Assembly (NCBI GenBank): GCA_963698225.1
Contig: CAVOPW010000018.1
Coordinates: forward strand, 8,972 to 72,971
Reading direction: 5' to 3'
Origin: an uncultured bacterium
GTDB taxonomy: Bacteria > Zixibacteria > MSB-5A5 > CAIYYT01
Length of the DNA: 64,000 nucleotides
Shown: in pieces, positions 21,474 to 59,426 of the stretch
Layout of the letters: the number at the start of each line of letters is the position of its first letter
Position numbering within the stretch: position 1 is the stretch's first letter
Position numbers and translations under genes: made by a program
Notes under the pieces: model-generated
The model's input: the letters and a program-made list of their open reading frames with translations, nothing else
Database searches by the model: none
Told to the model about the DNA's origin: nothing

Positions 21474-21496
21474 TTTCCGTGAGGGTGTTTTGCTTC

Positions 21497-21778: not shown

Positions 21779-21804
21779 CGGATGGGCTGGGAAGATTGTC
21801 GCCG

Positions 21805-25681: not shown

Positions 25682-26095
25682 GGCCCGGCTCCTATGCGCG
25701 TCAAGACGGCCAGCAAAGGCGCGGCGAGACAACGCCCTGTTGCCAACAGAGAAAATGCTCGAAAGTAGGGAGGGAGAGTATGTCCGGTCAGACCGGACAG
25801 ACGCAGCGACACGGACATGTCCGAGGATGCGTACATCGAGCATGGCTTCGCACCAACTGATCATTCGCCCGGCGGCAGTCGGCCCGGCGACATTCGTCAC
25901 CGCAGCCCGACCACGCCAGGATTCTATGCGATACTTAGGACTATTCGGCCACTTGGGGAGGCAGGTTGAGAAAGTCTCGCCCGGGACTCCCAAATTGAAC
26001 GCGGGATTTAATCCGCGCAGATCGTGACCCGGCGTAAGCGGACAGCCACGGCAAGTTCTTCCCTCTCTAACGCTCGGTACAGACGCGGGACTTGG

Positions 26096-27162
26096 CTAGT
26101 CCTCTTCCTCTTCTTCCAGTTTCGCCTTGGCGATGATCTCCTGCATCACGTTTGGCGGCATGACGTCGTAGTGGCTGAAGTCCATCGTGTAGCTGCCCTG
26201 CCCGCCGGTCATGCTGGAGAGCGTGCGCGCGTAGGTGGTGACGCTGCGGAGCGGCACTTCACAATGGACCGTCTGCAGTCCGCCGCCGGCCGAATCGGCA
26301 CCGGACACGCGTCCGCCGCGGCTGGACATGTCGCTGTACACGTCGCCCACGTTATTCTCGGGAATCGTCACGTCGAGTTTCACAACCGGCTCGAGCAACG
26401 AAGGCTTCGCCTGCTGGAACACATTGCGGAACACCATCGAGGCGGCCGTCTTGAACGCGGCTTCCGAGCTGTCGACCGGATGATGCTTGCCGAAGTGGAC
26501 TTCGACACCGATATCCTGCACCTGATAACCGGCGATCACACCGCGGCTCAATCGATCACGGAACCCCTTCTCGATGGCCGGCAGGAAGTTACCCGGAATC
26601 ACGCCGCCGACGACCGAGTCGATCCAGACGAAGTTGTTCGTCTCGTCGTAGTGATACTCCTTGAGCGACGGGAAGTTCGCCTTGGTGCAAAACTCTTCCA
26701 TGTTCGTGCCGCGTGGCAGCGGAAACATGCGGATATGCACTTCGCCGAACTGGCCACGGCCGCCCGACTGCTTCCTGTGTCGGTAGCTGCCTTCGGCCTT
26801 GATCTGGATCGTCTCGCGGAACGGGATCTTCGGTTCCTTCGTGTCGACTTCCAGTTTGTCGCGCCGAGCGAGGCGTTCGCGAATCACCATCAGGTGCAAT
26901 TCACTCATGCCAGTGATGACGAGTTCCTTGGTCTGGGCGTCGCGATCGAGGCGGAACGTGGGGTCTTCATCCACGACCTTATGCGATCGCGCCGGACAGC
27001 TTTGTTTCGTCACCGCGGCTCTTCGGACTGACGGCCAAGCCAACCATGGGGGTCGGGAAGCTCATCAAGGGCAGCCGGTAATCGCCCAGCGACGAGTTGG
27101 TGGTCAGGTCCTCCATCTTGGCGATCGCGATGAGATCACCGGGGCCGGCGACGTCGAGCTTG
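26096..27162 (-). CDS. fusA: Elongation factor G paralogue, domains II(end)-V only; 5' part replaced by archaeal DNA
   Basis: EDPTF, GMSELHL, PFRETI, RKQSGGRGQFG, LLEPV and SMTGGQGSYTMDFSHY. Confidence 0.9.
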
Positions 27163-32741: not shown

Positions 32742-32891
32742 CTGGCCGGGTAGTGTGGATTTCATTCATTCCCTGCCACTTTTTATCAGTTCAGAACCTG
32801 TTGCCAGGTTTTTCAACAGGATAACCCGGTAGTTACAACAATTTTATGTAAGGAATCTTCTGTCTGAATGAATGAGGAATTTGAAGAAGTC

Positions 32892-34378
32892 TCAATGCCT
32901 GAAGTATCGGACACCGGTAAAAATCATCGCCATATGAAGCCTGTTCGCCGCATCGATTACCTCTTTGTCGCGGATAGATCCGCCCGGTTGAATAAGTGCT
33001 GTAACTCCTGCTTCAGCCTGCAACTTCGAGGGTGTCTGCAAATGGCAGAAATGCATCTGAAGCGACAGCAGACCCAATCAGCGATGATCGGGCTTTCCCG
33101 ACTGCAATTTTTGCAGCATCCACTCTGCTCATCTGACCGGCACCAATTCCGAGAGTACACTTCTGATCGGCAAAGATAATGGTATTGCTTCTGGCATGCT
33201 TACACACCTTCCAGGCAGAGCTGAACCGCCCGCAGACTCATCGGGAGTCGTGTCTCGATCGGTGATCACCTTCCAGTGCTCCTGATAAGGGGGCGTTCGC
33301 TGAACAAGGACTCCTCCATCAATCGATCGGATTTCATCAGAACCGGATTTTTCCGGCAGAATCAGCACACGCATGTTTTCCTTTTTCCTGATGATGGCAA
33401 GGGCTTCTTCAGAAAATGACGGGGCAACGAGGACTTCAACAAATGTTCCGGCAATCTCTTGACTACGTTTTTTTTGATTTCACGGTTGAAGCAGACGACA
33501 GATCCGTAAGCAGAAACGGGATCGACTTCACGGGCATCGATGTAGGCCTCGGCTATGTTTGTGCCGAGAGCGACGCCGCAGGGATTATTATGTTTTATAA
33601 TGACAGCAGAAGGATCTTCAAATTCCCGGAGGAGTGCCACCCCGGCATCTACATCAAGGTAATTGTTATAGGACATCTGCTTTCCCTGAAAGGGTATGGC
33701 TCCTGCAATACCAGACTCCCCGTACACCGCAGCCTCCTGATGCGGATTTTCCCGTACCTCAGTGTTCTGCCATGACTGAACTGAACGGTATATGTGGTGG
33801 GAAACGAATCACTGAGTCCGAACAGGTAGTTGCTGATTGCACCATCATAGGCTGCCGTTCTGGCAAACGCTTTTTTTGCGAAAGCAAGGCGCTGATCGAG
33901 AGAAAGTTGCATTTCCCCGAATTGCTGTAATTAACGATGGATAATCCTCAGGGTCTACGACAACTGCAACATTTTTGAAATTTTTTGCTGCTGCCCGGAT
34001 CATCGCAGGTCCACCGACATCGATAAACTCGATCAATGATTCGCAGATCCATGTGCTGCCCTGCCATCTTCTCAAAAGGGTACAGGTTTACAACGAGAAC
34101 ATCAATCCGGTTAATACCGTGCTTAGCCATTACCAGATCATCAATCTGCCTTCTTCCCAGGAGACCCCCGTGCACTTTCGGATGCAGCGTCTTGACCCTG
34201 CCATCCATCATCTCGGGAAAACCGTGTAGCTGGAAACCTCAGTAAACTTTATCCCGGTTTCGCAAGTGCCTTTCCCGGTCCCTCCTGAGCTCATAATATT
34301 ATATTTTTGGCGCGAAAGTTCCTCGGCAAGCTCGACGATACCGGTCTTGTCCCAGACCGAGAGTAGTGCCCACTTCAT
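32892..34378 (-). CDS. purH: Bifunctional AICAR transformylase/IMP cyclohydrolase, bacterial type (many frameshifts)
   Basis: [60 protein letters not shown] and FTGVRYFRH. Confidence 0.93.
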
Positions 34379-34778
34379 GGTGAAGTGTATACATAACAGG
34401 AAAGAAAAATGTATGCAGCGTGCATACAAAGGTGAAGCATGAGCATGGTCATTTTAATAAAGACATCTGCGATATTCCCGTTTGACCATCATGAATCTTT
34501 TCCTGAAATTGCTTAAAAAAGGAAAGTTACTATTGGAATTATCGGCATGAATCCGGAATAAAACGTGAATTAAAGAATTGTGGTCACCGTATCCTGTGCG
34601 TGATTTTTTTTATTATGCATGAAAAAAGAAATTCTGGATCAGTTGTTGCTTTAATATTCACGTAATCCTGATAATCGGCCGATAAAAATTACCTCAAAAT
34701 AAAATCCATCAAAAATTTATCCCCCATTGGTTAAACCGGGTGAAATTCAGAGGTATTTGAATTAATATGATATCAAAA

Positions 34779-34806: not shown

Positions 34807-35368
34807 ATGGAACATCAAACGGGATGTACTATGGACGACGCAGAAATCAGTACAGGACAAGAAAGAGCACCTGATCAGGGAGGAGAAAACTGCCTGACGG
34901 AATGTCCAACGTGTGCAGCCGGCCTGGAAAGACAGAAGACCGCGTATGCTGAATTAAATGACCAGTTCCTGCGTCTTGCGGCGGACTTTGAAAATTTCAA
35001 AAAACGCTCGGTACGCGAAAGGGAGTTTTTTGTCTCTCTTGCAAACGAACGATTTGCAATTGACATTCTTGAAGTACTGGATAATTTTGATCGTGCAATA
35101 CAATCTGATGATACCCATCTGCGCAAAGGAGTGAACCAGATCCAGCACTCCTCATGACCGGTTATTGCGTAATGGGATCACTCCTGTGGATCCACTTAAA
35201 AAACAATTTAATCCCGCGGAACATGAAGCAGTCGCTCATATTGCGTCTGACGAACCCGCGGGTTCGGTGGTAGATGTAATAGCCCGTGGATACCGGATGA
35301 ATGATAAGGTAATCAGATACGCAAAAGTAGCAGTCTCAAAAGGAAATCAGAAAGACCAGGAGGTATAA
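34807..35368 (+). CDS. grpE: Nucleotide exchange factor GrpE (frameshift near 35155)
   Basis: [13 protein letters not shown]; FNPAEHEAV...[18 protein letters not shown]. Confidence 0.93.
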
Positions 35369-35370
35369 AA

Positions 35371-37221
<1,851 letters not shown>

Positions 37222-37227
37222 GCACTG

Positions 37228-38355
37228 ATGGGTACGGGAGATTATTACGATATCCTTGGCATACCCCGTAGTGCTGACGATAAAGAGATTAAGAAGGCGT
37301 ACCGAAACCTTGCACGGAAATTCCATCCCGATGTATGCAAGGATCCGGGTATGAGGAGAAATTCAAGGAGATCAACGAAGCGTATAGTGTGCTTTCCGAT
37401 GATCAGAAGAAAGCACAATACGACAATATGGGCCATGAAACCTACACCAGTGCTTCGAAGGGCTCGTATACGGGTGGAGGCGGGTTCGGGGGAGGTTTCA
37501 GTGCGGACTTTTCCGGCTTTGGCGATATCTTTGATTTCTTTGGCGGTGGTCAGCGACGTTCAGGTCCGCAGCCCGGCGCTGATCTGCTTATGCGCATCCA
37601 GATCAGGTTAGAAGATGCAGTATCCGGAGTGGACCGCGATATCGAAGTGATGCACACAGAACCCTGTTCCGCATGCGGTGGAACCGGAAGTGAAACAAAA
37701 AAACTGAATATATGTCCACGTTGCGGGGGTAGCGGACAGATGAGGCAGGCCGCTCATTCAGTTTTCGGCCAGTTTGTCCGGATGACGACCTGTACCCAGT
37801 GTAACGGGAAGGGAAAAATTACAGAAAAAATCTGCAGGGAATGCCGTGGGTCCGGTCATTCGCGGATGAAAAGAAATATTTCCGTCCATATACCTGCGGG
37901 AATCGATAATGGTATGCGACTCCGCATGGAAGGGTATGGCGAGGCAGGAGATTACGGTGCACCCAATGGCGACCTGTTCATCGAGGTCTATGTCCAGTCC
38001 CATGAACGGTTTACCCGGAACGGGGATAATCTCGAGACGATTATTGAAATCAGTCCTGCGCAGGCAGTACCTTGGTACTTCTGTCGAGATTGAAACGATA
38101 GATAGGCGTCATATTGAGCTGAAAGTCCCCTCCGGTATCCAGTTCAATACTGCCTTGAAAATCGCAGCTGAAGGCGTGAAGCGCCGTGGGAAGCCTGGCG
38201 ATTTGCTGGTCAGGGTAAAAATTGTTACACCAAAGTCTCTTTCCAGTGAGCAGAAAGAACTTTACCAGAAACTTGCAGAGCTTGAAGGCAAAAGCAGCGG
38301 TGCGGGCGGTTTTTTTTCCGGTATAATGGGTGGCAAGAAGAAAAGTAAAAAGTAA
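37228..38355 (+). CDS. dnaJ: Chaperone DnaJ (frameshifted)
   Basis: J domain with HPD, G/F-rich linker and four CxxCxGxG repeats. Confidence 0.96.
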
Positions 38356-38600: not shown

Positions 38601-38921
38601 GCGATAGGCCTGTTAAGGGTTCCATCACACGAAAAAGTGATGCACGAAAATTCTTGTGACTTTTTTATTTCAATTTCAGTCACAAAATTAATTCGAAAAT
38701 ATCGTCGTAAAAATAAAAAATTTCAGGGGTTGAATTGGTATGTTACCCTAAATAATATACCGCGAATTTTCAGGGCGTTTCGGCAGCCCGTCAGGACTTT
38801 GGTCGGATGGAAAAATATACAATTAATACACAGACCGCGATTAGCGATGATATTTTGTAAGTATTATTATCGTATCTCCGCCTGCGCACCTATTTGAATG
38901 AAGGTGACAAATGAGATCAGG

Positions 38922-39891
38922 ATGAGGCTGCTCTTCAAGCTTACCGGTGAAAATCCGACACTGCCCTTCGCCGAACTCGGCTGCATAGGTAAAGTTCTTG
39001 ACAGACGTCTCCAGGTCGCGGTTGTAGAATCAGCGGATCCGAAATCGGCGACCCGGCTTGCCATGACGCAGGTAGTGTCGGAATATCTTGGCGAGTGTGA
39101 ACCCACTACCCCAGCCTTCGAAGAACTACTCAAAGAGCTCGCCATTGAAACCCGGCTGTCATTTGCAGGACGTGCCAAAAAGGTTCACGGAGGTTGCCTC
39201 GAAAGAAATCCCTGTTCACAGCGGGAGTTTGAGTGTCTGATCAGTACCAGGATCTCCGGTCCCGTTTCTCTGAAAAAACCTCAGGTCGAATACCGTGCCG
39301 TGCTCTCGGAGGATCGCTGCTATTTTGGCAAAGTGCTTTTTTCAATCGACCGGGGGTCCTTTGATACCCGGAATCCCGGGAAACGGGACTTTTTTCACCC
39401 GGGCGTAATGATGCCAAGAATGGCCCGCACCCTCATCAACCTGACCTGTGTCAGGGCAGGGGACATCATACTTGATCCTTTCTGTGGAACCGGCGGTATA
39501 CTGATTGAAGCAGAGATGATTGGTATCCGTTCCGTGGGCAGTGATTTTGACCCATTGATGGCGGCTGGCAGCCGGCAGAACATAACCAACTCAGATCTCC
39601 TGCTTGCAGATGCAACACGTCTTCCGTTTCTTCAGTCAATCCTTCGATGCAGTGGTAACGGATTTCCCTTACGGCCAGTCTGTATGCGTCAAAAAAACCG
39701 ACACCATGGACAACCTGTATGCTGATGCGCTCGAAGAAATACGACGCGTAATCAGGCATGGACAGAAGGCTGTTGTAGTTACTCACCGGGATATCTCTGA
39801 TATTGCGGGACAGCATATGACCATTCTCCAGCGTCATGAGCAACGAGTCCATAAAAGTCTGACCCGTCACATCCTTGTCCTGACTCAATAA
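38922..39891 (+). CDS. tRNA m2G10 methyltransferase, Trm11/TrmG10-like (frameshift near 39630)
   Basis: LFKLTGENPTLPFAEL; FFHPGVMMPRMARTLINL; ILDPFCGTGGILIEA; DAVVTDFPYG. Confidence 0.85.
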
Positions 39892-40020
39892 TGTTCACCA
39901 TCCTTCCCATAACGATCTCCTCAGGCCACCCGTCAATCGATCCTATACAGTGGAATGGGTATAATCTTGGAGGCGGTGGATCTGAAAAACAATAAATATC
40001 CACGGGATATACTACTGCAA

Positions 40021-40590
40021 ATGAGGGAGCTGAAAAATAGTATTCGGCAGATCCTGCGTCAGCGCAAAGATGCAATGACCCCGGAAGAGAGGCTGAATAA
40101 AAGTACAAGGATCTGCTACCATCTTCTGGCACTGATCAGGAATGGCGAAACTGTAATGGTATACACCTCAAAGGAAAAAGAGGTAAATACAGCACACCTT
40201 ATCTCTGCCCTCCTTGAACGCGGGAATCCGATTGTCGTGCCTATAATTGTGAAAGAAGATGTCAGTCTGCGACTCTCTTATCTGAAAGATCTCTCTTCTC
40301 TTGTCCCGAGCACGTTTGGTGTCCCGGAACCTATAGGAAGTGAAATACCGGCCACAGGTCGTGACGTGGATACGATCATCCTTCCCATGCATGGTTTTGA
40401 CCGGACCGGGCGGAGAATCGGGTATGGAGCCGGGTATTACGACAGGTTCCTTGCCAAACACCTGAACTTACGAAAGATCGGGATCGCTTTCACCTGCCAG
40501 GAATATGAAAATCTTCCCGTTGATGAGAATGATATTCCCATGGATTATATCATAACCGAAGAAGGTGTCATGTATCCGGATGGGGAGTGA
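40021..40590 (+). CDS. 5-formyltetrahydrofolate cyclo-ligase
   Basis: KEKEVNT, FGVPEP, IILPMHGFDRTGRRIGYGAGYYDRFL and DIPMDYIITE. Confidence 0.92.
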   Translation: MRELKNSIRQILRQRKDAMTPEERLNKSTRICYHLLALIRNGETVMVYTSKEKEVNTAHLISALLERGNPIVVPIIVKEDVSLRLSYLKDLSSLVPSTFGVPEPIGSEIPATGRDVDTIILPMHGFDRTGRRIGYGAGYYDRFLAKHLNLRKIGIAFTCQEYENLPVDENDIPMDYIITEEGVMYPDGE

Positions 40591-40591
40591 T

Positions 40592-41488
40592 ATGACGGAG
40601 ATCAACGGCACAGAGATTCTCGATACCTATGCAGAGGCATTCCCGGTCTGGCTTTCCCGGGTTATTATTACCGCAGCAACACGAAAATGGGCGTATAAGG
40701 CAGCAGTTGAAGCGACAGGATTTGCGACATCAAAAATCGGATGTCCCTGTGAAGCCGGGATCGAAGGATATCTCCCGAAACATGAGACTCCTGACGGCAG
40801 GGCCGGTGTTTCCATCCTGATTTGTTCAGATAAGAAGACTATGAAATCAAATGTTGCATCCCGGATTTCCCAGTGTATCCTCCCGGCTCCTACAATTTCA
40901 GCCTACGACGGATTTCCTGAAGCCGGGTCACGGTTCTATATCCGTATGCACTATTTCGGGGACACCTATGAGGAGCGGTGCAGCATCAATGGCAGAAAAT
41001 GCTGGAAGATCCCCATCATGGAGGGTAACTATATCGGTGAGGAACGATTTGGGACCGTGAAGGGAATAGCAGGAGGCAATTTTCTCGTTATGGGAAAAAA
41101 CCAGATGTCGGCACTTTCCGGTATTGAGGCAGCAGTTGATGCTATCGCGGGATTAAACGGTGTCATTACCAGTTTTGCAGGAGGAATTGTTGCAAGTGGC
41201 TCGAAGCTGGGCAGTAAAAATTACCGTTTTCCTATGCCCGGCAAGCACAAATCATGTATGGTGCCCGACCCTGAAGGGAAAAATCGGCGATTCGAATGTA
41301 CCTGAAGGGGTAGGATCGGTATATGAGATTGTAATGAACGGAATAAACGAAAATCATATCAGGGAATGCTATGAAAGCGGGCATTCTGACTGCCACAGAA
41401 ACAGGAAAGGTCATGTTTATAGGGGCATCAAATTTTGAGGGAAAACTTGGCCGGTACCAGGTTTTACCTGCATGACCTGTTCAGGTAA
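40592..41488 (+). CDS. ftr: Formylmethanofuran:H4MPT formyltransferase-family protein, divergent paralogue (frameshifted)
   Basis: INGTEILDTYAEAF, EAGIE, ETPDGRAGV, GIAGGNF, GGIVASGSK, ASTNHVWCPTL, VYEIV and ASNFEGKL. Confidence 0.92.
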
Positions 41489-42175: not shown

Positions 42176-45100
42176 TCACCCGGCTTTCTTATAACATATT
42201 TTTGCCTCTTCATGTTTACCTATTGTATCGAGTACTCCACCAATATCCTCCCAGACTTCTTTTCGCCCGGGATCGATTTCCAGCGCATGTTTGAAAGACG
42301 TGAGAGCTTCCTGATACTTTTCCTGCTCCTGCAGGGCACGTCCCCGGTAAATCCATGCATCTACAAAATCAGGCTGGATCGTTAACATCGTGTTGAACGA
42401 TTCCACAGCCTCCTTGTACCGTCCGAGTGCGATAAGTGCACTTCCTTTGGTGAAATAGGCGATGGAAAAGGAGGGGTCGGCGGCAATTGCATGTTCATAT
42501 GATTCGATGGCAGCCTCGCTCTGGAATTGAGCGGCAAGTGCCATCCCATGACGTGTCCAGGCAACGGCATTCTCAGGATCAAACTCAAGACATCTTTCAT
42601 ATGCGGCAAGAGCTTCCGGGTGTTTGCCGAGATCATAGAGCACATTCCCCTTCCCCATCCATGCCTCGGCAGAATTTTCATCCTGTTCCAGAGACTTTAT
42701 CAAAAGTCTCCAGTGCATCTCTGGACATACCAAGTTCAGCCAGGGAAATCGCTTTATGGGACAGCGTCACTGCGCTATGACTGATTTCCAGAGAACAATC
42801 ATATGACTGTATTGCTTCCCTGTGCTGGTCAAGTGCAGCATAAGCCATACCCTCAAAGTAATACAGGTCAGCAGTCCTGTGGTTGTTCTCAATGGCATGC
42901 TCGAATGCCCGTATCGCATCTTCAAAATTGCCCATCTCAAAGAAAGCTCTCCCTTTCCAGAAAATAGCCTGGTTACAGGCAGGGTTCATCTCGAGAGCCC
43001 GTTCGAAGGCAGAGATTGCTGCATCAGGATTTCCAAGGCTGAAAAGAGCCCTGCCTTTCTCATAAACAGCATTCGCATATCCGGGACTGAAAGAGAGCGC
43101 AAGGTCAAATGATGCAATTGCTTCTTCATGCTTACCGCTGTGCATGAGTGCCCGCCCGCGTTCATAGAGCGCGTCCTCGTTTTCCGGATTAATGCCAAGC
43201 GCCGCATCAAAGGCAACAATCGATGCATCATAGTCACCAATGCGGGCAAGAGCAATTCCCTTGTGGTGGTATGCCTCTGTATACCGGTCATTCAATTCAA
43301 TTGCATGATTAAATGCGGTTATCGCGTCGTCATACCGTTCATGCCTGAGGTATGTGACACCCTGATAATAGAAGGCTTCCGGATAATCCTTCCGGAGGGA
43401 AAGTGCCCTGTCGAGTGCTTTAAGTGCTTCATCGTATCTGCCCAGGTGAATCAATGCAATGCCACGGTACAGGTATGGGCAGCTAATGGTGCCTCTTTGG
43501 AAATTGCATGATCATAACAGTCGAGAGCGATATCGTATCTGCCAAGGTTCGCTTCAGCAATACCCTTACTCAGCCATGCTTCCGTAAAAGTGCTTTTTTC
43601 ACTGATTGCCCGGTCAATGCACCTATTGCCTCATGATACATCAAAAGACTCATGAGAGCCTGTCCTTTCTGATAGAACGCCTGGATGCATTTCGGGCTGC
43701 GGCCAGGCAGCTTCGAAGCTTTTAATTGCCTCATGATACCTGCCGAGGCGGGATAAAGAAATCCCGGAATAATAGTATGCCCGGGCGTCTTTTGTATCGA
43801 TAGCCAGTGCCTTGTTGAAGCAGGTTAAGGCATCCAGATCCTTTCCGAGTCCTGAGAGGGCGAATCCCTTTCCGGTCCAGGCAAATGCAGCGGTCGGGCG
43901 CAGACGTAATGCCGAATCAAATGAGGTTATCGCTTCTTCGAACCTGGTCAGCCGGGTCAGGGCAATTCCCTTGTGGTAGAGTGCTTCAATATGTGCCGGC
44001 TCGGCTGCAAGGGCATTTTCAAAGGATACTACTGCCTCGCTGTCCCTTCCCAGTTCAAAGAGTGCCCGTCCCTTGTAATATAATGCTGAAACGAAATCCG
44101 GGCGTATTTCCAGTGCTTTGCTGAATGAGTCATCTGCATCTTCGTAACGGGTCAATGCGAAAAGTGCAGTCCCTTTCAGGTACCATGCGTCAGCACTGGT
44201 CGGGTCAGTCGCGAGGGTTTTCACATATGCTTCAATCGCTTCATGATATCTGCCCAGGTCGGCCATTGCCATACCACGGTGCAGCAATGCTTCAACAGAT
44301 TCAGGTTGTACCTGCAATACCCTGTCAAATGCATCGATTGCATCTTTCTGCCGTCCGGTCGCAACAAGGGACAACCCTTTGTTATAAAAAGCCTGTGCAT
44401 TACCTGCATCAAGTTCGATGTTTTTGTTGAAGGCGGAGATGGCATCTTCATAACGGCCCAGATTTGCAAGGGCACACCCTTTATGGAGATAGACATCAGC
44501 ATAATTTCTCTCAATCCTAAGTGCCTTGTCAAAGGCTTTTACCGCATCACGGTACATGCCAAGAGAAGCGTGTGACTTTCCTTTGTTGTACCATGCCTCA
44601 GCAAAGGAAATATCGGTCTCGAGCGCCCGGTCAAATGATTTGACAGACTTCTTCAAACCTCCCGGTCTGAGCAAGTGCGGCACCCTTATAGAAAAGCGAA
44701 TATGTGTGTTTCGGGTCGAAATTGAGTGCCTGGTCGTAAACGGCAATTGCATCCCCGTTCCGGCCGAGTATGTCCAGTGAACGAGCCTTGCTGTAATACG
44801 CCTCAAAATAATCCGTTTTCAGGGCAATCGCTTTTTCAAATGCTGGAATTGCCAGGTCATGGCTTCCGAGTTTTGCATAAACAACACCCTGCTCGAACCA
44901 GATCTGTGCATCATCAGGAGTTATGGCAAGCAGTCTTCCGAATACTTCTGCAGATTCAGCATATCGTCCCAGCTCGGCAAACGATGATGCGTAAAAGAAA
45001 AGGGCATCCGTATTACCGGCTTCAACAGCGAGTGTTTTTCCCATACACTGAGTGATTCTTCAAATTTACCGAGGTGGAATAAAGCAATACCTTTCTCACA

Positions 45101-48100
45101 TAAAGCACTGGCAGTATCCGGCGAGAGCTCAATCACCCGGTCAAAGGAATCGATTGCCTCCTCAAATTTACCGATGCTTGTAAAAACTCTTCCCCGCTCA
45201 AGGTAAGCCCTGGGATCATCAGGCCTGAATTTTATACTGTTATCGAACGCATCGATTGCATCTTCGGGACGATCCAGATAAGTAGTACTACACCTTTCTC
45301 ATACCAGATCTCCCCATCAGTATTCCGGAGTTCAAGCGCTGCGTCAAAAGCACGTCCCGCCTCATCATATCTACCAAGATTAGCCAGGGATATTCCCCGT
45401 AAATATCTCGGTTCATACAGGTCCGGGAGGACAGATGAGGCATGCGCGAAAATTTCCTGTGCTTCTTCGTGCCTTCCCAGGGTTGAAAGGACCCGACCCT
45501 TCTCATTCAGGAGCTGCCCATTTTCAGGAGCCAGAGTCAGGGCAAGATCAAAAATATGCAGCGCATCGTTATAACGTGCGAGCCGCGAAAGTGCGCATCC
45601 TTCTGAGTAGAGCAATGTGATATTCCGCGGGTCGTTCTGACGTGCTTTTTCAAATGCGGAAACAGCATCCTCGTCTTTGCCCAGATGTTCAAAAGCGACG
45701 CCTTTATGGAACCATGCATCGGAATAGTCTCCAATCCGGGAAAGAACCTCATCGAATGCCAGGAGTGCCTCTTCGTACTTCCTGAGATTTTCGAGGGAAA
45801 GCCCCTTATGGAAGTGGGCTTCGGCAAAATCAGGATCGAGAACAAGAGATCGTGAAAATGAAGATTCCGCTTCCTCATACCTGCCGAGCATCGCATACGC
45901 GAGCCCCTGTTCGAAATGCCCGTCCCTGCTCTGATCATCAATTGCAAGCGCTTGAGAGAATGCAATGACCGCCTCTTCATGTTGTTTCAGCTTTGAAAGC
46001 GTACAAGACCCTTGTAATAACAGGCATCAAATGCACGGTTATCAAGATTGATTGCCCGGTCAAATGCTGTAGCTGCTTCTTCAAATCTCATGAGATTGAA
46101 GAGGATGATGCCCTTGTTAAACCAGGTCTCGTAGCTGCCCGGCATCAAGTTCGAGAGCCGCATCGAATGCCTGGAGTGCCTCATCGGGTCGGTCCAGGTT
46201 TTTAAGGGAGAGACCCTTGTGATAATATATCGGTGCCTGTGATGGTTCAACGGCGATTGCCCGGTCAAATGATACAATGGCATCCTTATCTTTCGAGAGC
46301 CGTGCAAATGCGAGTCCCTTGTCATAGAAGGCACTGACAAACCTGGGATCGATGGTCGTAGCCTGTTCAAAAGCTTCGACTGCCTGGAGATCCTTTCCAA
46401 GTTTTGTCAGGGCGATACCCTTGTCATACCAGGCATTTGCATATCTGGGGTTAATGGCAAGCACCCGGTCATAGGATGAGACGGCCTCTTCATGTCTGCC
46501 AAGTTCTGAGAGTGCGATTGCCCAGTTCGTACCACCCGTAGGCGGAACCGGGTTTTATATCCAGGGCGCGGGTGAGGGCGTCCAGTGCGGGTTCAAACCT
46601 CCTGAGCGAGAGCAGCGTACTTCCTTTCTAGCCACGCCGGTGCACACGCCTCATCGTGCGCAAGAACCTGGTCAAAGCAGGCAATTGCATCTTCCGGGTT
46701 CTGGAGTTCTATGTATGTCTTTTCCCTTCCGGTACCATGCTGTTGTGTTGTCCGGTGCAAGGGAGGTTGTCCTGTCGAATGCTTCGAGTGCCTCTTCAAA
46801 CCGTCCCAGTTCGAAAAGCACCCTCCCCTTGAGCAGCCAGACGTCTGCGACACCGCTTTCAAGGCTAAGTGAGGATTCGAGTGCCCCGAGTGCCTCTTCA
46901 AACCTGTGGAGAGATGCCAGGATGATGCCTTTGTTAAACCAGGTCTCGTAGTTGCCGGCATCGCGTTCGAGAGTGGCATTGAATGCCCCGAGTGCCTCAT
47001 CGGGTCGGTTCAGGTTTTTGAGGGAGAGACCCTTGTGATGATATATCGGAGCCTGTGACGGTTCAACGGCGATTGCCCGGTCGAATGAAGCAATAGCCTT
47101 CTTGTCTTTCGAGAGCCGTGCAAATGCGAGCCCCTTGTCATAAAACGCATGGACAAACCTGGGATCAATAGTCGTAGCCTGTTCAAAAGCTTCGACAGCC
47201 TGGAGATCCTTTCCGAGTTTTGTCAGGGCGATACCCTTGTCGTACCAGGCATTTGCATATCTGGGGTTTAAGGCAAGGACCCTGTCATACGAAGAGACAG
47301 CCTCTTCATGTCTGCCAAGTTCTGAGAGTGCGATTGCCCGGTCAGTACCACCCGTAGGCTGAACCGGGTTTTATATCCAGGGCACGGGTGAGGGCATCCA
47401 GTGCGGGTTCAAACCTCCTGAGCGAGAGCAGCGTACTTCCTTTTCTCAGCCACGCCGGTGCACACGCCTCATCGTGTGAAAGAACCTGGTCAAAGCAGGC
47501 AATTGCGTCTTCCGGGTTCTGGAGTTCTATGTATGTCTTTCCCTTCCGGGACCATGCTGTTGTGTTGTCCGGTGCAAGGGCGGTTGTCCTGTCGAATGTT
47601 TCGAGTGCCTCTTCAAACCGTCCCAGTTCGAAAAGCACCCTTCCCTTGAGCAGCCATACGTCTGCGACACCGCTTTCAAGGCGAGTGAGGATTCGAGTGC
47701 CCCGAGTGCCTCCTCAAACCTGTGGAGAGATACCAGGACGGCTCCTTTGTTAAACCAGGTCTCGAAGCTCGCCGGCATCAAGTTCGAGTGCTGCATCGAA
47801 AGCCAGGAGTGCCTCTTCAGGGTGTTTCAGGTTTTTGAGAGAGAGTCCCTTATGATAATATGCCGGGGCCAGTGAGGATTCAACGGCAATTGCCCGGTCG
47901 AATGAAGCAATGGCATCCTGGTCTTTCGAGAGCCGTGCAAATGCGAGCCCCTTATCATAGAATGCATTGACAAACGTGGGATCGATTGTCGTTGCCTGTT
48001 TAAAATCTTCGATGGCCTGGGCATCCTTGCCGAGTTTTGTCAGGGCGATACCCCTGTCGTACCAGGCATGTGCAAATCCCGGGTTAATGACAAGCACCCT

Positions 48101-51100
48101 GTCATAGGACGAGATGGCCTCTTCATGTCTGCCAAGTTCTGAGAGTGTGATTGCCTGGTTGTACCACCCGTAGGCAGAACCGGGTTCAATATCAAGGGCA
48201 TGGACAAGGGCGTCCAGTGCGGGTTCATACCGGCCGATGGATAATAGCGTACTTCCTTTTCTCAGCCACGCCGCGTGCACACGCCGCATCGTGTGCAAGA
48301 ACCTGGTCAAAGCAGGCAATTGCATCTTCCGGGTTCTGGAGTTCGATGTATGTCTTTCCCTTCCGGTACCATGCCGTCGTGTTGTCAGGTGAAAGGGCGG
48401 TTGTCCTGTCGAATGCTTCGAGTGCATCTTCAAACCGTCCCAGTTCGAAAAGCACCCTTCCCTTGAGCAGCCATACGTCTGCGACATCGCTTTCAAGGCT
48501 GAGTGAGGATTCGAGTGCCCCGAGTGTCTCCTCAAATCTGTGGAGAGATGCCAGGATGGTGCCCTTGTTAAACCAGGTCTCGTAGTCTGCCGGCATCAAG
48601 TTCGAGAGCCGCATCGAATGCAAGGAGTGCCTCATCGGGTCGGTCCAGGTTTTTAAGGGAGAGACCCTTGTGATAATATATCGGTGCCTGTGATGGTTCA
48701 ACGGCGATTGCCCGGTCAAATGATACAATGGCATCCTTATCTTTCGAGAGCCGTGCAAACGCGAGTCCCTTGTCATAGAAGGCACTGACAAACCTGGTAT
48801 CGATGGTCGTAGCCTGTTCAAAAGCTTCGACTGCCTGGAGATCCTTTCCAAGTTTTGTCAGGGCGATACCCTTGTCATACCAGGCATTTGCATATCTGGG
48901 GTTAATGGCAAGCACCCGGTCATAGGATGAGACGGCCTCTTCATGTCTGCCAAGTTCTGAGAGTGCGATTGCCCGGTCGTACCACCCGTAGGCTGAACCG
49001 GGTTTTATATCCAGGGCGCGGGTGAGGGCGTCCAGTGCGGGTTCAAACCTCCTGAGCGAGAGCAGCGTACTTCCTTTGCTCAGCCACGCCGGTGCACACG
49101 CCTCATCGTGCGCAAGAACCTGGTCAAAGCAGGCAATTGCATCTTCCGGATTCTGGAGCTCTATGTATGTCTTTCCCTTTCGGTACCATGCCGTCGTGTT
49201 GTCAGGTGAAATGGCGGTTGTCCTGTCGAATGCTTCGAGTGCCTCTTCAAACCGTCCCAGTTCGAAAAGCACCCTTCCCTTGAGCAGCCATACGTCTGCG
49301 ACACCGCTTTCAAGGCTGAGTGAGGATTCGAGTGCACCGAGCGCCTCACCAAACCGAAGAAGTTTCACCAGGACAGATGCCCGCTGATAGAGTGCAGGAG
49401 CATTATCCGGTTCCTTTTCCAGCAAAGTATTGAATGCATCAAGAGCTTTTTTCATTTTTTCCAAGGCTGACAAACGAGAGACCAGACTGGAATATCGCAT
49501 CTGTCAGGGAATTGTCAAAGATAAAAGCCTGACTGAATGACCGGATTGCCTTTTCGTATTTTGCTGTGGCTTTCAGCACGAGTCCTTTATGATAATGTGC
49601 ATAAGCGTGCTCCGGTACATTTTCAAGAGTATAGTCGAACGCTTTGATGGCGTCTTTGTACCTGCCTGTGCGGAAGAGAGCAAGACCTTTATTATATGCT
49701 GCATCGGTAAAGGAAGGGACCAGGGCAAGAGTTTTTTCATAAGCACTGATGGCGTCATCGTCATACCCGAGTGAAGACAGTGCAAGACCCCGGCCATACG
49801 CTGCATCAGCGCTACCGGATTTCAATTCGAGTGTTTTATCAAATGCCAGAATCGCATCGTTGAAATACTTAAGCTTATTAAGGGCGTGTCCCCTCGCTAA
49901 CCAGATGTCAGGATCGTCCGGAGTAAGTTCGATTGAACGGTTCAGGGAAACCAGAGCGTCTTTGTTGCGTCCGGCTGCCATGAGGGCATTCCCGCGGTGG
50001 TAGTGGAGATAACCATTTTCAGGTCCGATGGCAAGTGCCAGATCGAATGCTGCAACCGACTCCTCATATCGCCCGATAGTCTCGAGTGCGACTCCTTTTT
50101 TGTATGCTGCGTTCTGCATACCCGGGCTGAGTTCAAGGGCACGTTCAAACGCAGGCACCGATTCATCAAACCGTTTTAGTGTACAAAGGACATCTGCTTT
50201 ATTGTACCATGCGACTGCACATGAATCGTCCAGAGACGATGCCATCCCGAACGCTTCAAGGGCATCCTCAAACAGTGACATCTGCTTATAGCTGATTCCG
50301 CGGTAATACCATGCAGTGGTATGCTGTTTGTCAAGGACTATCACCTTATCAAACGCTGAGACTGCCTCTTCCCACCGTTTGAGGTGAAGCAGGGCTTTTC
50401 CACGATGAATAAGTGCAAAAATGTTCTGGGGTTCACGCCTTAGCGATTTCCCGAAAGATTCAACTGCTTCCTTAAATCGGAACAACTTATAGAGTGAATA
50501 CCCCTTGCATGAAAGGAGACCTGAATCCGTGGTGTCCTGTTCCAGTGCCCTGTCCAGTGCAATTACTGCGTCTTGGTACCGGGCAAGTTTTACTAAAGCA
50601 ACACCCCTTCCCCGGTGTGCCCGGGTATTTTCCGGATCAAGGAGGAGAGTTGCGTCGAACTCTCTGATTGCGTCCTCATACCGGGCAATCTTTTCAAGAA
50701 TCTCACCCTTGACAAGATGGGATACCACGTCGGTTGAATCAAGTTCGAGGGCGCGATCGAACGAAGCGATCGCATCCTCATTTCTGTCGAGCCGGGAGAG
50801 CACCAGTCCCTTTTCAGCATGTAAACGGGAGTTATCCAGACCCATCTCAATACATGCATTGAATGCATCCAGGGCAGATTTCCGGTTGGCCGAGATGGGA
50901 ATATGAAAGCCCCTTCTCAAAAAGGATCTCACCGGAATCAGGTTTGAGAACAAGAACGGCATCGAATGCTTCTATTGCCCGGTCGTATTTTTTAATGATG
51001 AAAAAAGATCTCCCCATCTCTTTCCAGGCTTCTATTCGGGATGGGTTAAGAGCCACGGAACGGGTGAAAGCCTCAATGGCATCAGAATATTGACGTAAAC

Positions 51101-54100
51101 GAACGAGAGCGGCACCTTTAAAATAAAATACCCGTTCGCACGAGGGCTCCAACTGGTTAATCCGGGAATATACGGTAACTGCTTCTTCAGTTAAATCCTG
51201 GCGGTCTGTTCCCGGGCAAGACCGTATAATGCTGTCAGATCATCTGGATTTGTGATAAGGTACATTCCTGAATGCTTCAGTCGCCTCCGGGTCGCGTCCG
51301 AGAGTGAGAGTGCTCTCCCCTTCTGCAGATACGCATCTGCAAAATCCGGCATCAGACGGTTCGCCTGCTCGAAAGCTGCAACGGATTCTGTAATTTCTGC
51401 GCTTTGGCAAGTGCAATACCCTTATAATAATATGCTTCACCAAATTCCGGTTCGAGAACCAGTGCGTGATCAAATGCTGCAACTGCATCATCAAAATTGT
51501 CAAGGCTGATGTGGGCCCTGCCCTTATAGAACCAGGTATGGGGGTTGTCAGGGTCAATTTCCAGTGAGGTTGCATAGGCAATGAGAGCGTCCTGAAATTG
51601 TTCGAGAGCAAAAAGACAGAATCCTTTTATCAGCCATGCATTGGCGATCCGTGGTTCAGCCTCGAGTGCACGGGTAAGGGCTTTTACAGCTTCGCTGAAT
51701 TCACCAGTCGGCGAGGGCAAGTCCCTTATGGTACAACGCATCGGTAAAACCGGGATTAATCTCAAGGGCGCATGTAAATGCCCTGGCCGCTTCATCATGA
51801 TGTCCCAGCACTGCATGGGATAAACCATACCGGTAAAAATATATCAGCCCTTCCGGGATCGATTGATCTGCCGTCTTAAAAGCAACAGCTGCCTGTTCAT
51901 GTTCATCCAGATGTGCGAGAGCAATCCCCTTCTGATAGAGTGCCTCAGGATTATCAGGGGTCATTTCAAGGGTACTATTGAAAGCGGATATTGCTTCGTC
52001 ATATATACCCACATTTGAAAGGGCTATACCTTTATTGAAGAAGGCTGGTGCGAAATGGGGAATCAGTTCCAGCACGCGATCAAACGAGGCGACCGCTTCA
52101 GGATGCCTGCCAAGGTGGATCAATGCCAGCCCCCTGTCATAATACACCTGTGCATTACCCGGATCAGCTCGATAGCCTGCTCAAAAGCAGTAACCGCAGG
52201 CTCGAAGCGTTCCAGTTCAGCAAGGGCTTTTCCTTTCTGGTAAAGTGCTTCGATAAAGTCCGGTTGAGTTCTATTGCCTTTTCGCAGGCAGCGAGCGATT
52301 CTTCATGACGACCCAGATCGTGAAGTGCGACTCCTTTTCTGAGTGCGGCCTCTGCCGAATTTGGGTCCAGTTCAAGCGCCCGGTCAAATGCATCTATCGC
52401 ATCCTGGCAGCAGCCCATACCATACAGGGCTTGGCCTTTCTGGAAAAATCCCGGGGCATATGACGGGAGGAGGGAGAGTGCCCTGTCAAACGAGACAACC
52501 GCTTCGCTGAACCTGCCCAGTTTTCGCTAAGGCAACGCCTCGGTTGTAGTGTGCATCTGCGAGCTGGGGATTTGTTTCAAGAGCATGATCAAATTCCTGA
52601 ATTGCCTCGTCTGTCCGGGATAATTCCAGGAGGGCAAAACCCTTATGGAAATGAGCATCGGAAAAACCGGTAGATCTCGATCCCTGTCATACGCATAAAT
52701 TGCCTCAGGAGGTGTTTCCGGAATCAAAGAGTGCTCTTCCTTTCTGATAATAGGCATGGTAATTTTTAGGATTATCAGTAATAATCTTGTTAAAGTCCCT
52801 GACAGCATCCTTGAATTTTTTAAGATGAGACAGGGCGATGCCTTTTCGCATCCGTGCTTCTGCATAATTCGGTTTTAGTGAAGCGTCTTTTCGAAAGCAA
52901 AGATTGCCTCATTGTAACGGTTCTGACCCATGTAAGCCTTGCCCTTATGATAGAAAGCCAGTGCATTATCAGGATCGTAAATAAGTGCTTTATCAAAAGC
53001 CTCAAGTGCTTCTTCGAATCTTCCGAGCCTGGAAAGTGCGAGACCACGGTTAGATGCCCCTGTGCATTTCCCGTATCCTTCTCGAGATTCTTATCGAAGG
53101 ATTCAATGGCTTCAGTATATTTTTCCAGGCTAAAAAGTGCAAATCCCAGATGATAGTAGACTTCAGTGAAGGAAGAATCAATTTCCAGAGCACGGGTAAA
53201 TGCAGAAATTGCATCGGAATATTTTCCGCTCTGGTTTAAGGATTTTCCCTTGTTATACCATGCAGGTGCAAAAGAAGGCAGGATATCAGCAGTCTTTTTA
53301 AAAGCTTCGATTGCATCACGGTGATCTCCAAGTCTGGCTAATGCAAGTCCCTTATGGAACAGGAAGCTCGATATTTGTACAGATTTCGAGGAGTATTTCA
53401 TATGCATGGATCGATTCGTCGAATCTGTTTACTTTTTCAAGCGCGAGCCCCTTGTAGTGAAATGCTTCAATGCATCTCTTGTCCAGGGCTATAGCATTAT
53501 CAAACGCATCAATAGCATCCTGGTATCTCCCGATGTCAAAGAGAGCCTTCCCGTTTTTGACCCATGCGTCAACCTGACCGGGATCAATTTTCAGGGATTT
53601 GGTGAATGCGACGATTGCATCCTCTGTTCGTCCGAGATCATTCAGGGCATCACCCTTCTTCATCCAGATGTCGCGAAGGGCAGGGTTAATATCAAGGGCA
53701 CGGGAATAAGCAAAAACAGCATCCTGAATTTTATGGAGATCGTAGAGAGCATTGCCTTTTTTTACCCACGCCTCCACGAAATTCATATTAATCTCAAGGG
53801 CTTTTGAATATGCGAGGACAGCATCCTGTTTTCTCTGAAGAGAAAAGAGGGCATCTCCCTTCTGCATCCAGATCTCGATTATCGTCGGATTGAGCGAGAG
53901 AATCCTGTCGTGTGTCTCGATAGCTTCGGGATACCGGCCAAGCTTAAAAAGTGATTTTGCACGGCAGATGAGTGCTTCGATAAGCGACGGGTTTGCTGAT
54001 AACTTGTTGAGTAAAGGAATAGCTTCTTCGTAACGGGAAAGTTCAGCGTTGGCGATACCCTGGTACATATAACTTTCAGTGAGTGTCGGATCAATTTCAG

Positions 54101-57100
54101 TTGCTTTTTTGTTCGCCGCGATAGCATCCTCATACCGTTTCAATTCGAGATACGAAAGTCCAAGGTAATAATAATTTGAGGCATCGGATGTATCCAGGGA
54201 CAGGGCCGCCTCAAAGGATTTTACAGCATCATTATAGCGTTCACGCTGGACAAGGGCGACCCCTTTGAAGTGATGCGTTGATGGGTTTGAAGGATCAAGC
54301 AGAAGTGCTTTGTCGAATGCTTTTATCGCATCGCTGTATCGTTCTTTACCGGTAAATGCGACCCCGAGGAAATAAAATCCCAATGCATTTTCAGGCCCGA
54401 TATCCAGAGACTTCTCAAATGTCCTGATGGCATCATCGTATCTCTCGCGCTGGATTAGAGCGATCCCTTTCTGGTACAGGATTTGTGGATCATGGGGAGA
54501 TATTTCCAGTGCCATGTCGTAGGACGCAACAGGCTTCCAGGGGCATCCCAAGATGAATAAGGGCATTTCCCTTCTCAAAAAATGCACGGGCACAACGGCG
54601 GTTGATCTCAATAGTTTTATCAAAAGCCTGAACGGCTTCTTCAAATCTTTCAAGGGCTGACAGCCCGATACCAAGGTAACACCATGACCAGACATCGCGT
54701 GGCTGTTCCTCAACCGAGCGGCTAAGGATCAGCACCGCTTCTTCAAAATGGTGAATTTTGATAAGTTCGATACTTTTCCGCACTGTTGCTTCAGTAAGTC
54801 CGGGATCCAATACGAGGGCCTGGTTAAAAGCCTCAATCGCCTCGTCCTGCAAACCAAGATTTGCCAGGGCAATACCCTTGTTCAGCCACAATCCGGGACG
54901 TAATGGATCATATCCGAGTGCTTCCCGAAAGTATCCAGACTTCCTGATAGTGTAAAAGACGTAAATGTGCAATCCCTTTCCCAAATAATGCCTCGTGATT
55001 ATGCGGGGAAATTTCAAGGACGCGATTATAAGCATCGATCGCATCGGAGTATTGTCCGAGCTTAAGGAGCGTTTCTCCCCTGTAATACAGCGCAGGAATA
55101 TAGAGCGGACTGATTCCAATTGCCCTGTCAAAAACATTCAGGGCCTCAGAATAATTTTTTTGGTGTACCAGCGCAAGTCCCATGGCATAATGAACCTCAA
55201 TAAAATCCGTTTGAAGTTCAAGTGCGATGTCAAAGGACCTGATTGCTCATATACCGTTTCAGCTCGGAAAGAGAAATTCCCTTATGGTAGCTGATCATCG
55301 GATCATCAGGTGTGAGGTCAAGTGCCCTGTCGAAGGCTGCGATTGCATCCTTGTACCTGCCCAGGCGGGACAAGGCAATCCCTTTTCTATGATAAGCGGG
55401 AGTGCAACCAGTATTGATCCCTATGGCTTTATCGAATGACTGGACCGCTTTTTCAGGCTGCCCGAGTGCCGCAAGGGCAACACCCTGATAACACCAGAGC
55501 AGGGCATCCCCGCGGCATTCCCCGGGAAGCGCCGCTGAATACTCCGAGAGCCTCTTCATGTTTTCCAAGTTTGACGAGTGCAATTCCTTTTCTGACCAGC
55601 GCATCCGTTCTTTTTGGATCAGCAGAACTGACTGATCAAATGCCTCGACTGCTTCTTCATAATGTTTCAGCTGCTGGTGCACGATCCCTGAGTAATAATA
55701 CGATGGTGCATGGGCAGGATCGAGTGCAATGGCCCGATCGAATTCTGTAAGGGCTTCCTCAAAGTGATCCAGCTCGATAAGGGCAATACCTTTGAAATGG
55801 TGGACAAGGGAATATGAGGGATCTATGGCAAGAGAATGATCGAATGCGGTTACCGCTTCAGAATACCGCTCGGTACCGGCATATGCCAGTCCAAGAAAAT
55901 AATATCCCGAAGCATTTTCCGTTTCATGTGCAAGGGCATGTTCGAACGCATCGATTGCATCTTCAAAACGCTCCTGACGAAAAGAGAGTGACACCTTTCA
56001 GATAGATAATTTTCGGATTATCAGGTTCGATCTTCAGTGCACGATCATAGAGATCTTCCGCTTCTGACTGCTTTCCCAGATAGGAGAAGGCGTTTGCTTT
56101 CTCATAGAGTGCACGTGTGCACCGCGGGTTGATCTCCAGAGTTTTGTCAAACGAACGAATGGCTTCTTCGAATCGTTCAACAGATGAAAGGGCGATACCT
56201 TTATAATACCATGCCTGGTCATTGTCAGGCTGTTCTTCAAGAGCACGGTTAAGAATTGAGATTGCCTCATCATAACGGCAGAGAGTTATCAGGACAATTC
56301 CTTTACGGACTGCTGCCTCCGCATGCCGGGGATTTAAAATAGTACTTTGTCGAACGACGCGATGGCTTCATCTGCCATTCCCAGTCTGCTGAGGGTAATT
56401 CCTTTCTGGAGCCACCCTTCAGTCAGCGCGGGTTCTGCTCGATTGCCTCGTTAAATGCCACCAGTGCTTCCTGATATCGAGAAAGATGGAAAAAAGCCAG
56501 ACCTTTATTATACCATGCACCGGTATTCTGCTGTACCTGTCCGAGCACGCTGTCGAAATCCAGTATCGATTCAGCATATGCCCGGTCATAAGCGGTACCG
56601 CGCTGATAGAGAACGAGGGTATTTGTCGGATCAAGTTCAAGGGCCTGATCATAGGCATATACGGCATCTTCATATCTCCCCAGCTGAATGAGTGAAAGTC
56701 CCAGGTTGTAATACGCATTGATGTAATTTGGGTTGATGGCAATGGCGTGTTCAAATGCATCAATTGCCATTTCGGACTTTCCGAGCTTTGCCAGGGCAAG
56801 ACCTTTATCATAGAATGCCTGGGCAAACGAAGGTTTGATCCTGATACTTTTATTGTATGATTCAATTGCATCAGGATATTTACCGAGTTTGGCAAGCAGG
56901 AGTCCCTTCTGGTGAAATGCCTGTGCATTTTCCGGATTCTGTTTGATAGTCCTGTCAAATTCCTGAATGGCTTCATCGACATTTCCCAGTTTTGCGAGTG
57001 CAAAACCCTTATGGAAATAGCATCCCCATAGCGCAGGATTGATCTTCAGGGCCCTGGTCGTACGCAGAAACAGCTTCCGCATACCTGCCGAGGCTGGCGT

Positions 57101-59420: not shown

Positions 59421-59426
59421 CGGCCG

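Follow-up and report, generated by a model that had tools for sequence, protein, structure and literature searches.

The cyclo-ligase gene and the ftr gene behind it

The DNA analysed here (the window) is a 64,000-nt stretch, C18:8972-72971, of a 3.55-Mb bin in 24 contigs (G000). It carries a gene for a 5-formyltetrahydrofolate cyclo-ligase of the MTHFS (5-FCL) family, fcl, and directly downstream of it ftr2, a paralogue of the gene for formylmethanofuran:tetrahydromethanopterin (H4MPT) formyltransferase (Ftr). The first-pass annotation of this DNA had placed the cyclo-ligase stop codon one nucleotide before the ftr ATG, and this arrangement was confirmed (TGA 40588-40590; ATG 40592, which starts the Ftr reading frame), as was the presence in that frame of the two peptides it had singled out, ATSKIGC and QCILPAPT. 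The intact open reading frame (ORF) that it had drawn from 40592 to 41488, however, could not be maintained. Comparison with a short-read Methanoregula metagenome-assembled genome (MAG) revealed three 1-nt insertions, at ~41237 (C), ~41365 (A) and ~41457 (C), each within a homopolymer of 2–3 nt. In a three-frame translation the Ftr sequence moves to frame 2 at ~41243 and to frame 3 at ~41372 and returns to frame 1 for the last residues, and the first in-frame stop of ftr2 as assembled falls at 41303-41305 in frame 1. Since the three +1 shifts add up to 3 nt, the start of ftr2 and its final TAA share one frame, which is probably why the breaks were overlooked and a 299-codon ORF was assumed. 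In relatives the cyclo-ligase starts at the ATG equivalent to 40021, giving a protein of 189 aa, and intact Ftr2 homologues of 301 aa begin at the ATG equivalent to 40580, which gives an 11-nt overlap with the cyclo-ligase gene.

The cyclo-ligase matched PF01812 over the full length of the model (121 bits, model positions 1-186) in a profile search, and it was aligned with the A. aeolicus enzyme (1SOU, E 5e-21), the human enzyme (3HXT) and also 2JCB and 1YDM. The N-terminal K/R residues and the nucleotide/Mg motif GxGxGYYDR are kept in these alignments to solved MTHFS structures. Judged by its sequence, the cyclo-ligase is an ordinary, canonical member of the MTHFS family, and its predicted substrate, from family membership and the order-wide presence of PurN and FolD or Fhs described below, is 5-formyl-tetrahydrofolate (5-formyl-H4F). 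The window Ftr2 scored 188.9 bits against PF01913 (cut-off 27) and 83, 50 and 26 bits against PF02741 over its three frames in a whole-genome hidden Markov model search. After correction of the frameshifts, the protein was 97% identical to intact 301-aa metagenome proteins and 93–96% identical to Methanoregula MAG proteins, and in the tree described below it nested with the Methanoregula copies within a 99%-supported clade of cyclo-ligase-linked Ftr. We regard the frameshifts as very probably sequencing errors in a gene that is intact in the real organism.

Conservation of the pair in Methanomicrobiales

The distribution of the two genes was surveyed with Pfam profile searches in 121 Methanomicrobiales species genomes of at least 90% completeness. 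Ftr (PF01913) was found in 118 of them, as one copy in 87 and as two or more in 31; the cyclo-ligase (PF01812) was likewise found in 118/121, almost always as a single copy. In every multi-copy genome (31/31), exactly one ftr lay less than 400 nt downstream of the lone PF01812 gene on the same strand, and this linked copy was always the one with the lower Pfam score. Among single-copy genomes ftr and the cyclo-ligase gene were apart in 86/87, and the copy of the sole exception belongs to the paralogue clade; canonical ftr was never linked to the cyclo-ligase gene. These results show a strict and ancient coupling of an Ftr paralogue to the only cyclo-ligase gene in the genome. The first-pass annotation had raised the possibilities that Methanomicrobiales with the linked copy also carry a separate canonical ftr and that the adjacency is a property of a whole clade. 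Both were borne out, the former in 31/31 multi-copy genomes and the latter as a single clade whose adjacency is exceptionless in those genomes. It had further held that its reading would fall if this were the genome's only ftr. No second ftr was found in the window's bin, so formally the copy is alone there; this carries no weight, since the bin is bacterial with a mis-joined methanogen fragment (see below) and holds just 31.5 kb of the donor, and the nearest relatives (G041-G045) all carry canonical ftr.

In a maximum-likelihood tree the linked copies formed one clade (SH-aLRT 99) and all other copies another (99), and when 41 family representatives were added the linked and canonical clades were recovered as sisters (96). 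The subclades of the paralogue mirror those of the canonical tree. We conclude that a single duplication inside the order, in organisms that certainly produce formyl-methanofuran, was followed by vertical inheritance and multiple losses. In 28/32 loci the ftr2 start lay between -11 and +21 nt from the stop of the cyclo-ligase gene. The bacterial-type purH that the first-pass annotation had noted ~5.6 kb away is indeed present, upstream and on the opposite strand, but its proximity is not kept: across 16 diverse loci the pair alone was conserved, and purH and all other neighbours varied. Within Methanoregulaceae, the ratio of non-synonymous to synonymous substitution rates (dN/dS) was 0.09–0.14 for ftr2 and 0.02–0.03 for canonical ftr, so that ftr2 is under purifying selection, yet evolves like a lower-flux enzyme. 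The module of cyclo-ligase and second Ftr is thus kept by about a quarter of Methanomicrobiales and is apparently undescribed. No description of a cyclo-ligase–Ftr operon in Methanomicrobiales was found in a literature search, and no PF01812 adjacency was found among 10 Ftr representatives looked up in other lineages. A single ftr has been reported for M. hungatei JF1 (PMC4704411). Two apparent cyclo-ligase–Ftr fusion proteins among metagenome proteins from Methanoregula-like contigs, P0084 (476 aa) and P0105 (452 aa), were set aside as probable frame errors or mis-called genes; their PF01812 matches are partial (positions 1-111 and 43-137 of 186).

Ftr2 aligned end to end with the Ftr proteins of M. 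barkeri, M. kandleri and A. fulgidus and with FhcD (E 1e-96 for 1M5S and 1FTR). Glu245 (M. kandleri numbering), for which Acharya et al. in 2006 reportedly described a catalytic role in Ftr, is the E of a YEIV motif and is kept in 47/47 clade members. A catalytic role has been assigned to the corresponding glutamate of FhcD, Glu252 (PMC6926001). The first-pass annotation had taken the two peptides as departures from normally conserved positions and hence as a sign of divergence, a use for which they proved not to be diagnostic. The K of ATSKIGC (K48) occurs in 30/47 clade members at a position that is variable across the family; Q94, in the QC of the second peptide, is the family consensus and is present in all four solved Ftr/FhcD structures, the E of canonical Methanomicrobiales Ftr at position 94 being the derived state; and P98 (LPAPT) occurs in 34/47 clade members and 7/46 others. 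Set against the wider family, the features specific to the clade are limited to M119, C130, N210 and the insertion of one Pro after F218 (M. kandleri numbering). Q94, S103, N249 and H221, drawn from the first-pass residues and an initial set of seven sites, were rejected as clade-specific, being common states in the solved structures and the 41 representatives.

Origin of the methanogen segment and other features of the contig

The first-pass annotation had assumed a methanogen host. However, mcrA is absent from the bin, and neither Ftr nor McrA was found in 40 relatives up to class level. The G+C content (GC) is 60–62% at 1–27 kb of the window, 45–53% at 28–59 kb and 62–64% beyond 59.25 kb, and the rest of the bin averages 54% (Table 1 gives the averages for the methanogen segment and the left flank); this composition points to three sources. 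By local blastn, the middle segment is collinear at 90–95% nucleotide identity with G044:C10 and G041:C58, and at 75–85% with G042:C1. G041, Methanoregula sp. UBA471, was also the genome on which the survey of Methanomicrobiales was centred. The gene order of the segment (CCA-enzyme fragment, thpR, nrdH-like, nrdD, HTH, KTSC, purH, grpE-dnaK-dnaJ, UPF0020 methyltransferase, fcl, ftr2, giant TPR gene) is matched in loci L008-L010.

Table 1. Coordinates of the features of the window (positions in the 64,000-nt stretch)
Feature	Position	Strand	Remarks
High-GC bacterial left flank	1..27043		61% GC; intact long genes: F-type atpD, PknB-like kinase, C69 dipeptidase
Bacterial EF-G-like gene fragment	26096..27043	-	Domains III (partial), IV and C (Pfam)
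Methanoregula-like chromosomal segment	27160..58648		31.5 kb; 48% GC; collinear with Methanoregulaceae
Bacterial-type purH (AICARFT/IMPCHase)	32890..34430	-	At least 5 frameshifts; dN/dS 0.10; ends approximate
grpE-dnaK-dnaJ	34807..38355	+	All frameshift-split; dnaK dN/dS 0.016
UPF0020-type methyltransferase	38898..39891	+	PF01170; frameshift-split; intact orthologues 322-330 aa
fcl, 5-formyltetrahydrofolate cyclo-ligase (MTHFS/5-FCL family)	39955..40590	+	211 aa from ATG 39955; PF01812; open frame
ftr2, cyclo-ligase-linked paralogue of formylmethanofuran:H4MPT formyltransferase	40580..41488	+	PF01913, PF02741; broken by three 1-nt insertions
Giant TPR-repeat gene	42176..58372	-	Many frameshifts; 5,404 aa in G041
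Low-GC piece	58649..59250		35-44% GC; without counterpart in three Methanoregulaceae references
Small Cys-rich ORF	58828-59124	-	Within the low-GC piece; no Pfam match
High-GC bacterial right flank	59251..64000		62-64% GC

Both ends of the segment were located. At the left junction (27044-27160), two genes are interrupted: a bacterial EF-G-like gene, cut after domain III, and an archaeal CCA-enzyme gene, cut after ~106 residues. In two references the similarity to Methanoregula sets in at 27160. A single ORF (26979-27479, minus strand) spans both gene pieces, which is an assembly chimera and no fusion gene, and no GTPase motifs of the EF-G half were found anywhere on contig C18. At the right junction (~59251), GC jumps to 61–66% after a ~600-bp low-GC piece that is absent from the references. 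The flank also stands apart from the bin in which it was placed: none of 12 genomes from the same genus contained an orthologue of its atpD with more than 66% identity, and in tetranucleotide distance it exceeds the bin's 95th percentile.

Relative to the short-read references the segment contains ~5 indels per kb, nearly all of 1 nt and 93% of them not multiples of three, which break purH, grpE, dnaK, dnaJ, the methyltransferase gene, ftr2 and the TPR gene. After removal of the indels, dN/dS between the segment and G041 was 0.128, and a single stop codon was found among the 8,723 codons compared; comparison pairs gave 0.079 and 0.132, and gene-by-gene values agree. The substitutions therefore arose in a living methanogen, where purifying selection acted normally. 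The abnormality is confined to the indels, a pattern that marks long-read indel error at low depth. In contrast, 8.6 kb of long genes in the bacterial flank contain no break at all, indicating that the two parts were read at different quality. We conclude with high confidence that C18 is a chimeric, mis-binned long-read contig in which a methanogen segment was joined to a high-GC bacterium and binned with a third organism. The gene pair is, in all likelihood, the fcl-ftr2 operon of a Methanoregula-like methanogen, seen in a low-accuracy reading with about one single-base indel per 200 nt. A real inter-domain transfer of the 31.5-kb segment into a high-GC bacterium, with ftr2 and other genes as decaying pseudogenes, would account for the high-GC bacterial sequence on both sides of the segment in one contig and for the ~150 frameshifting indels, but is very improbable: the relaxed selection that it implies is not seen in the dN/dS values above, neutral decay yielding 0.5% indels should also have left many nonsense and non-synonymous changes, the indel density exceeds that of the flank more than 14-fold, implying that segment and flank differ in read depth, both junction genes are cut mid-domain with the missing EF-G half not on the far side, and the same bin holds other composition-discordant blocks and many single-base frameshifts. 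Apparent oddities of this stretch, such as a 'truncated' NrdD, a CCA/EF-G 'fusion' and the split genes, are artefacts of the same origin.

Elsewhere in the 54% GC bin, blocks of 60–73% GC were found at C4:1-45000, C10:15001-35000, C11:90001-100000 and C12:1-5000, which may be further chimeric joins or foreign DNA, and single-base frameshifts occur in other genes of the bin as well. One of the collinear references is itself unusual: G044:C10 (locus L024; CAWDVE010000010.1, 2.2 Mb), deposited as 'uncultured Candidatus Rokubacteria', contains both copies of ftr, is collinear with genomes of Methanoregulaceae and, in the 52 kb that were examined, has a GC of ~50%. The 7.3-Mb bin to which it belongs seems to be mislabelled or mixed, with this contig as a Methanoregulaceae chromosome.

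Several genes of the segment could be read more completely in relatives. An intact 494-aa purH orthologue with PF01808 and PF02142 is present in L008/L009. The apparent truncation of nrdD (window 28415-30650) before its glycyl-radical end is most simply explained by single-base indels; the orthologous piece in G041 is intact, with dN/dS 0.027. The giant TPR gene is a single ORF in the short-read MAG (G041:C58:13708-29919) and extends over 4,588+ aa in L009; it has a dN/dS of 0.15, contains ~816-nt tandem cassettes (window 46102-49355) and has taken ~80 indels here. A family of ~200-nt repeats, possibly MITE-like (miniature inverted-repeat transposable element), lies between genes of the segment at 30781-30981, 41717-41936 and 41928-42138, with a 61-nt core that is 93% identical between 30839-30899 and 41990-42050; relatives also carry one in the interval that separates dnaJ from the methyltransferase gene (L008 7631-8046). 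For the small ORF in the low-GC piece, a suspected IS1595-type transposase Zn-ribbon was not borne out by any Pfam match. A further pair of F-type ATPase alpha and beta genes lies in the left flank (window 15890-20394); it shares only ~65% identity with the pair that belongs to the bin itself (C19:121670-125676), whose atpD is frameshift-split near residue 390.

Possible functions of the pair and relation to known systems

The folate enzymes of the order were counted in the same survey. A PurN-type protein (PF00551) was found in 121/121 genomes, FolD (PF02882) in 103/121 and Fhs (PF01268) in 18/121, exactly the genomes without FolD. The Fhs genomes are small (1.6–2.1 Mb), and each sampled species has exactly one of FolD and Fhs able to supply 10-formyl-H4F. 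With PurN and either FolD or Fhs in all 121 genomes, a folate pool is expected. The co-occurrence of ftr2 with FolD and PurN that the first-pass annotation had envisaged was found throughout: all 32 Ftr2 genomes carry both, and none of them has Fhs.

Our tentative proposal, to which we give somewhat less than an even chance, is that Ftr2 is a formyl-methanofuran:tetrahydrofolate N5-formyltransferase that, together with the cyclo-ligase, forms a two-step shunt of CO2-derived formyl groups into the folate pool, so that the product of Ftr2 would be the substrate of the cyclo-ligase. Ftr2, with its retained Glu245, would accept the formyl group from formyl-methanofuran and transfer it to N5 of tetrahydrofolate (H4F) instead of H4MPT. 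The co-translated cyclo-ligase would then close the stable dead-end N5-formyl-H4F to 5,10-methenyl-H4F at the expense of one ATP, and FolD would yield 10-formyl-H4F for PurN and PurH, or methylene-H4F. In this way a small biosynthetic folate pool could be charged straight from the first intermediate of CO2 reduction, in a functional analogue of formate–tetrahydrofolate ligase. The attraction of the proposal is chemical. N5-formyl-H4F is a stable dead end, and no enzyme other than MTHFS is known to re-mobilise it, whereas 5-formyl-H4MPT is cyclised by Mch without ATP. With canonical ftr never needing a cyclo-ligase, a folate acceptor would be chemically compelling. The distribution of Ftr2 and Fhs weakly suggests two alternative one-ATP entries of formyl groups into H4F. 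Purine C8 of M. hungatei was reported to be labelled from C2 of acetate, that is, via serine and folate, and purH was reported in the genomes studied (PMC3261824); in a species without Ftr2, this labelling is compatible with the shunt and silent on it.

A number of observations weigh against this proposal. Ftr2 is only moderately divergent: its identity with the canonical copy is 55–58%, and clustering at 50% identity places the two types together. It shows no striking active-site change, and its sequence contains no clear signal of acceptor specificity; the characterised Ftr enzymes are, to our knowledge, H4MPT-specific, and we know of no direct folate measurements in Methanomicrobiales. The genomes with neither Ftr2 nor Fhs (71/121) still have PurN and FolD, so that the shunt would be dispensable. 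The mutual exclusion of Fhs and Ftr2 follows clades and is not phylogenetically independent, which makes it weak evidence. Finally, a cyclo-ligase homologue also occurs in Methanothermobacter and M. kandleri, where folate was not found (PMC3087415), which makes an H4MPT-type substrate conceivable. Purine C8 of M. hungatei was reported to be labelled from C2 of acetate, that is, via serine and folate, and purH was reported in the genomes studied (PMC3261824); in a species without Ftr2, this labelling is compatible with the shunt and silent on it.

We considered whether the pair might instead act on H4MPT, an alternative that the first-pass annotation had mentioned for the cyclo-ligase and that Kaster et al. 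(2011; PMC3087415) had already raised by proposing a 5-formyl-H4MPT role for the homologue in Methanothermobacter and M. kandleri. An Ftr2 isoenzyme would make N5-formyl-H4MPT (or the tatiopterin equivalent) and the cyclo-ligase homologue would convert it with ATP to methenyl-H4MPT, as an irreversible, low-flux bypass of Mch serving anabolism or start-up. Retention of Glu245 and most family-conserved residues in Ftr2, and its derivation from canonical ftr inside the order, are consistent with such an activity. However, Mch already does this step, reversibly and without ATP, and one ATP per one-carbon (C1) unit would be too costly for catabolic flux. In none of the 87 single-copy genomes does canonical ftr, which makes the same product, adjoin the cyclo-ligase gene, and the presence of the cyclo-ligase in 118/121 genomes regardless of Ftr2, with PurN in all of them, fits ordinary folate salvage. 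Action on H4MPT is, on this evidence, rather unlikely, though a contender.

Two further explanations appear improbable. In one, the pair would dispose of 5-formyl-H4F arising as a side product of serine hydroxymethyltransferase (SHMT), which the cyclo-ligase would clear with ATP and Ftr2, running in reverse, would clear to methanofuran without ATP, so that the carbon would re-enter methanogenesis. A substrate common to both enzymes would explain the strict pairing, formyl transfer by Ftr is reversible, FhcD working in the reverse direction (PMC6926001), and folate enzymes are universal in the order. Yet the two routes would be redundant for a minor metabolite, there would be no reason to exclude Fhs-bearing genomes, and the putative acceptance of folate by Ftr2 is demanded here as well. 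In the other, which we find equally doubtful, there is no metabolic coupling: Ftr2 would be a spare or differently regulated H4MPT isoenzyme that was placed behind the cyclo-ligase gene by ancestral chance and kept there by inertia. The moderate divergence, the duplication within the order and a dN/dS 4–5 times that of the canonical copy, which could mean relaxed constraint, would be accommodated, but ω of about 0.12 indicates clear purifying selection. Moreover, the adjacency has persisted in 31/31 multi-copy genomes and at least four deep subclades in which all other neighbours changed, the cyclo-ligase stop and ftr2 start overlap or lie within about 20 nt, and Ftr2 was never found away from the cyclo-ligase.

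The strictly conserved, translationally coupled operon gives a concrete hold on the question of how C1 units reach the folate-dependent purine enzymes of Methanomicrobiales. The role of the cyclo-ligase homologue in methanogens was called unclear, and possibly H4MPT-directed, in 2011 (PMC3087415). If the folate shunt exists, the methanofuran/H4MPT and folate C1 systems would be connected in a new way, and MTHFS would have a new physiological role, a committed anabolic one instead of repair.

Among known systems, canonical Ftr (EC 2.3.1.101; PDB 1FTR/2FHJ from M. kandleri, 1M5S from M. barkeri, 1M5H from A. fulgidus) is the sister clade of Ftr2 and shares with it PF01913, PF02741 and Glu245. 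Ftr2 differs in being an extra copy beside the catabolic ftr, always behind the cyclo-ligase gene, in evolving 4–5 times faster and in its M119, C130, N210 and Pro insertion after F218. The window cyclo-ligase resembles other MTHFS enzymes (EC 6.3.3.2; PDB 1SOU, 2JCB, 3HXT, 1YDM) in its full-length PF01812 match and motifs. Unlike them it is, in about a quarter of species, translationally coupled to an Ftr paralogue. MTHFS classically serves to salvage a side product, but in this setting it may catalyse a committed step of a pathway. 'Ftr2' paralogues whose function is not known have been described in anaerobic methanotrophic archaea (ANME), Archaeoglobales, M. kandleri and Methanothermobacter or deep-branching methanogens (Chadwick et al. 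2022, PMC9012536), and a second Ftr-like coding sequence of Methanothermobacter was reassigned as EhaT (Kaster et al. 2011, PMC3087415). These are likewise extra, uncharacterised Ftr-family copies beside a characterised Ftr1 in methane-metabolising archaea; however, they were described as divergent and grouping across orders, whereas the clade described here arose by a shallow duplication within Methanomicrobiales, and neither study reports a cyclo-ligase link for them. Fhs (EC 6.3.4.3), if the folate shunt holds, would be the functional counterpart of the pair, since it too loads a formyl group onto H4F for one ATP, and the two are mutually exclusive in the survey (18 genomes with Fhs, 32 with Ftr2, none with both). 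Fhs differs from the pair in its unrelated fold, in using free formate as donor and in yielding 10-formyl-H4F directly.

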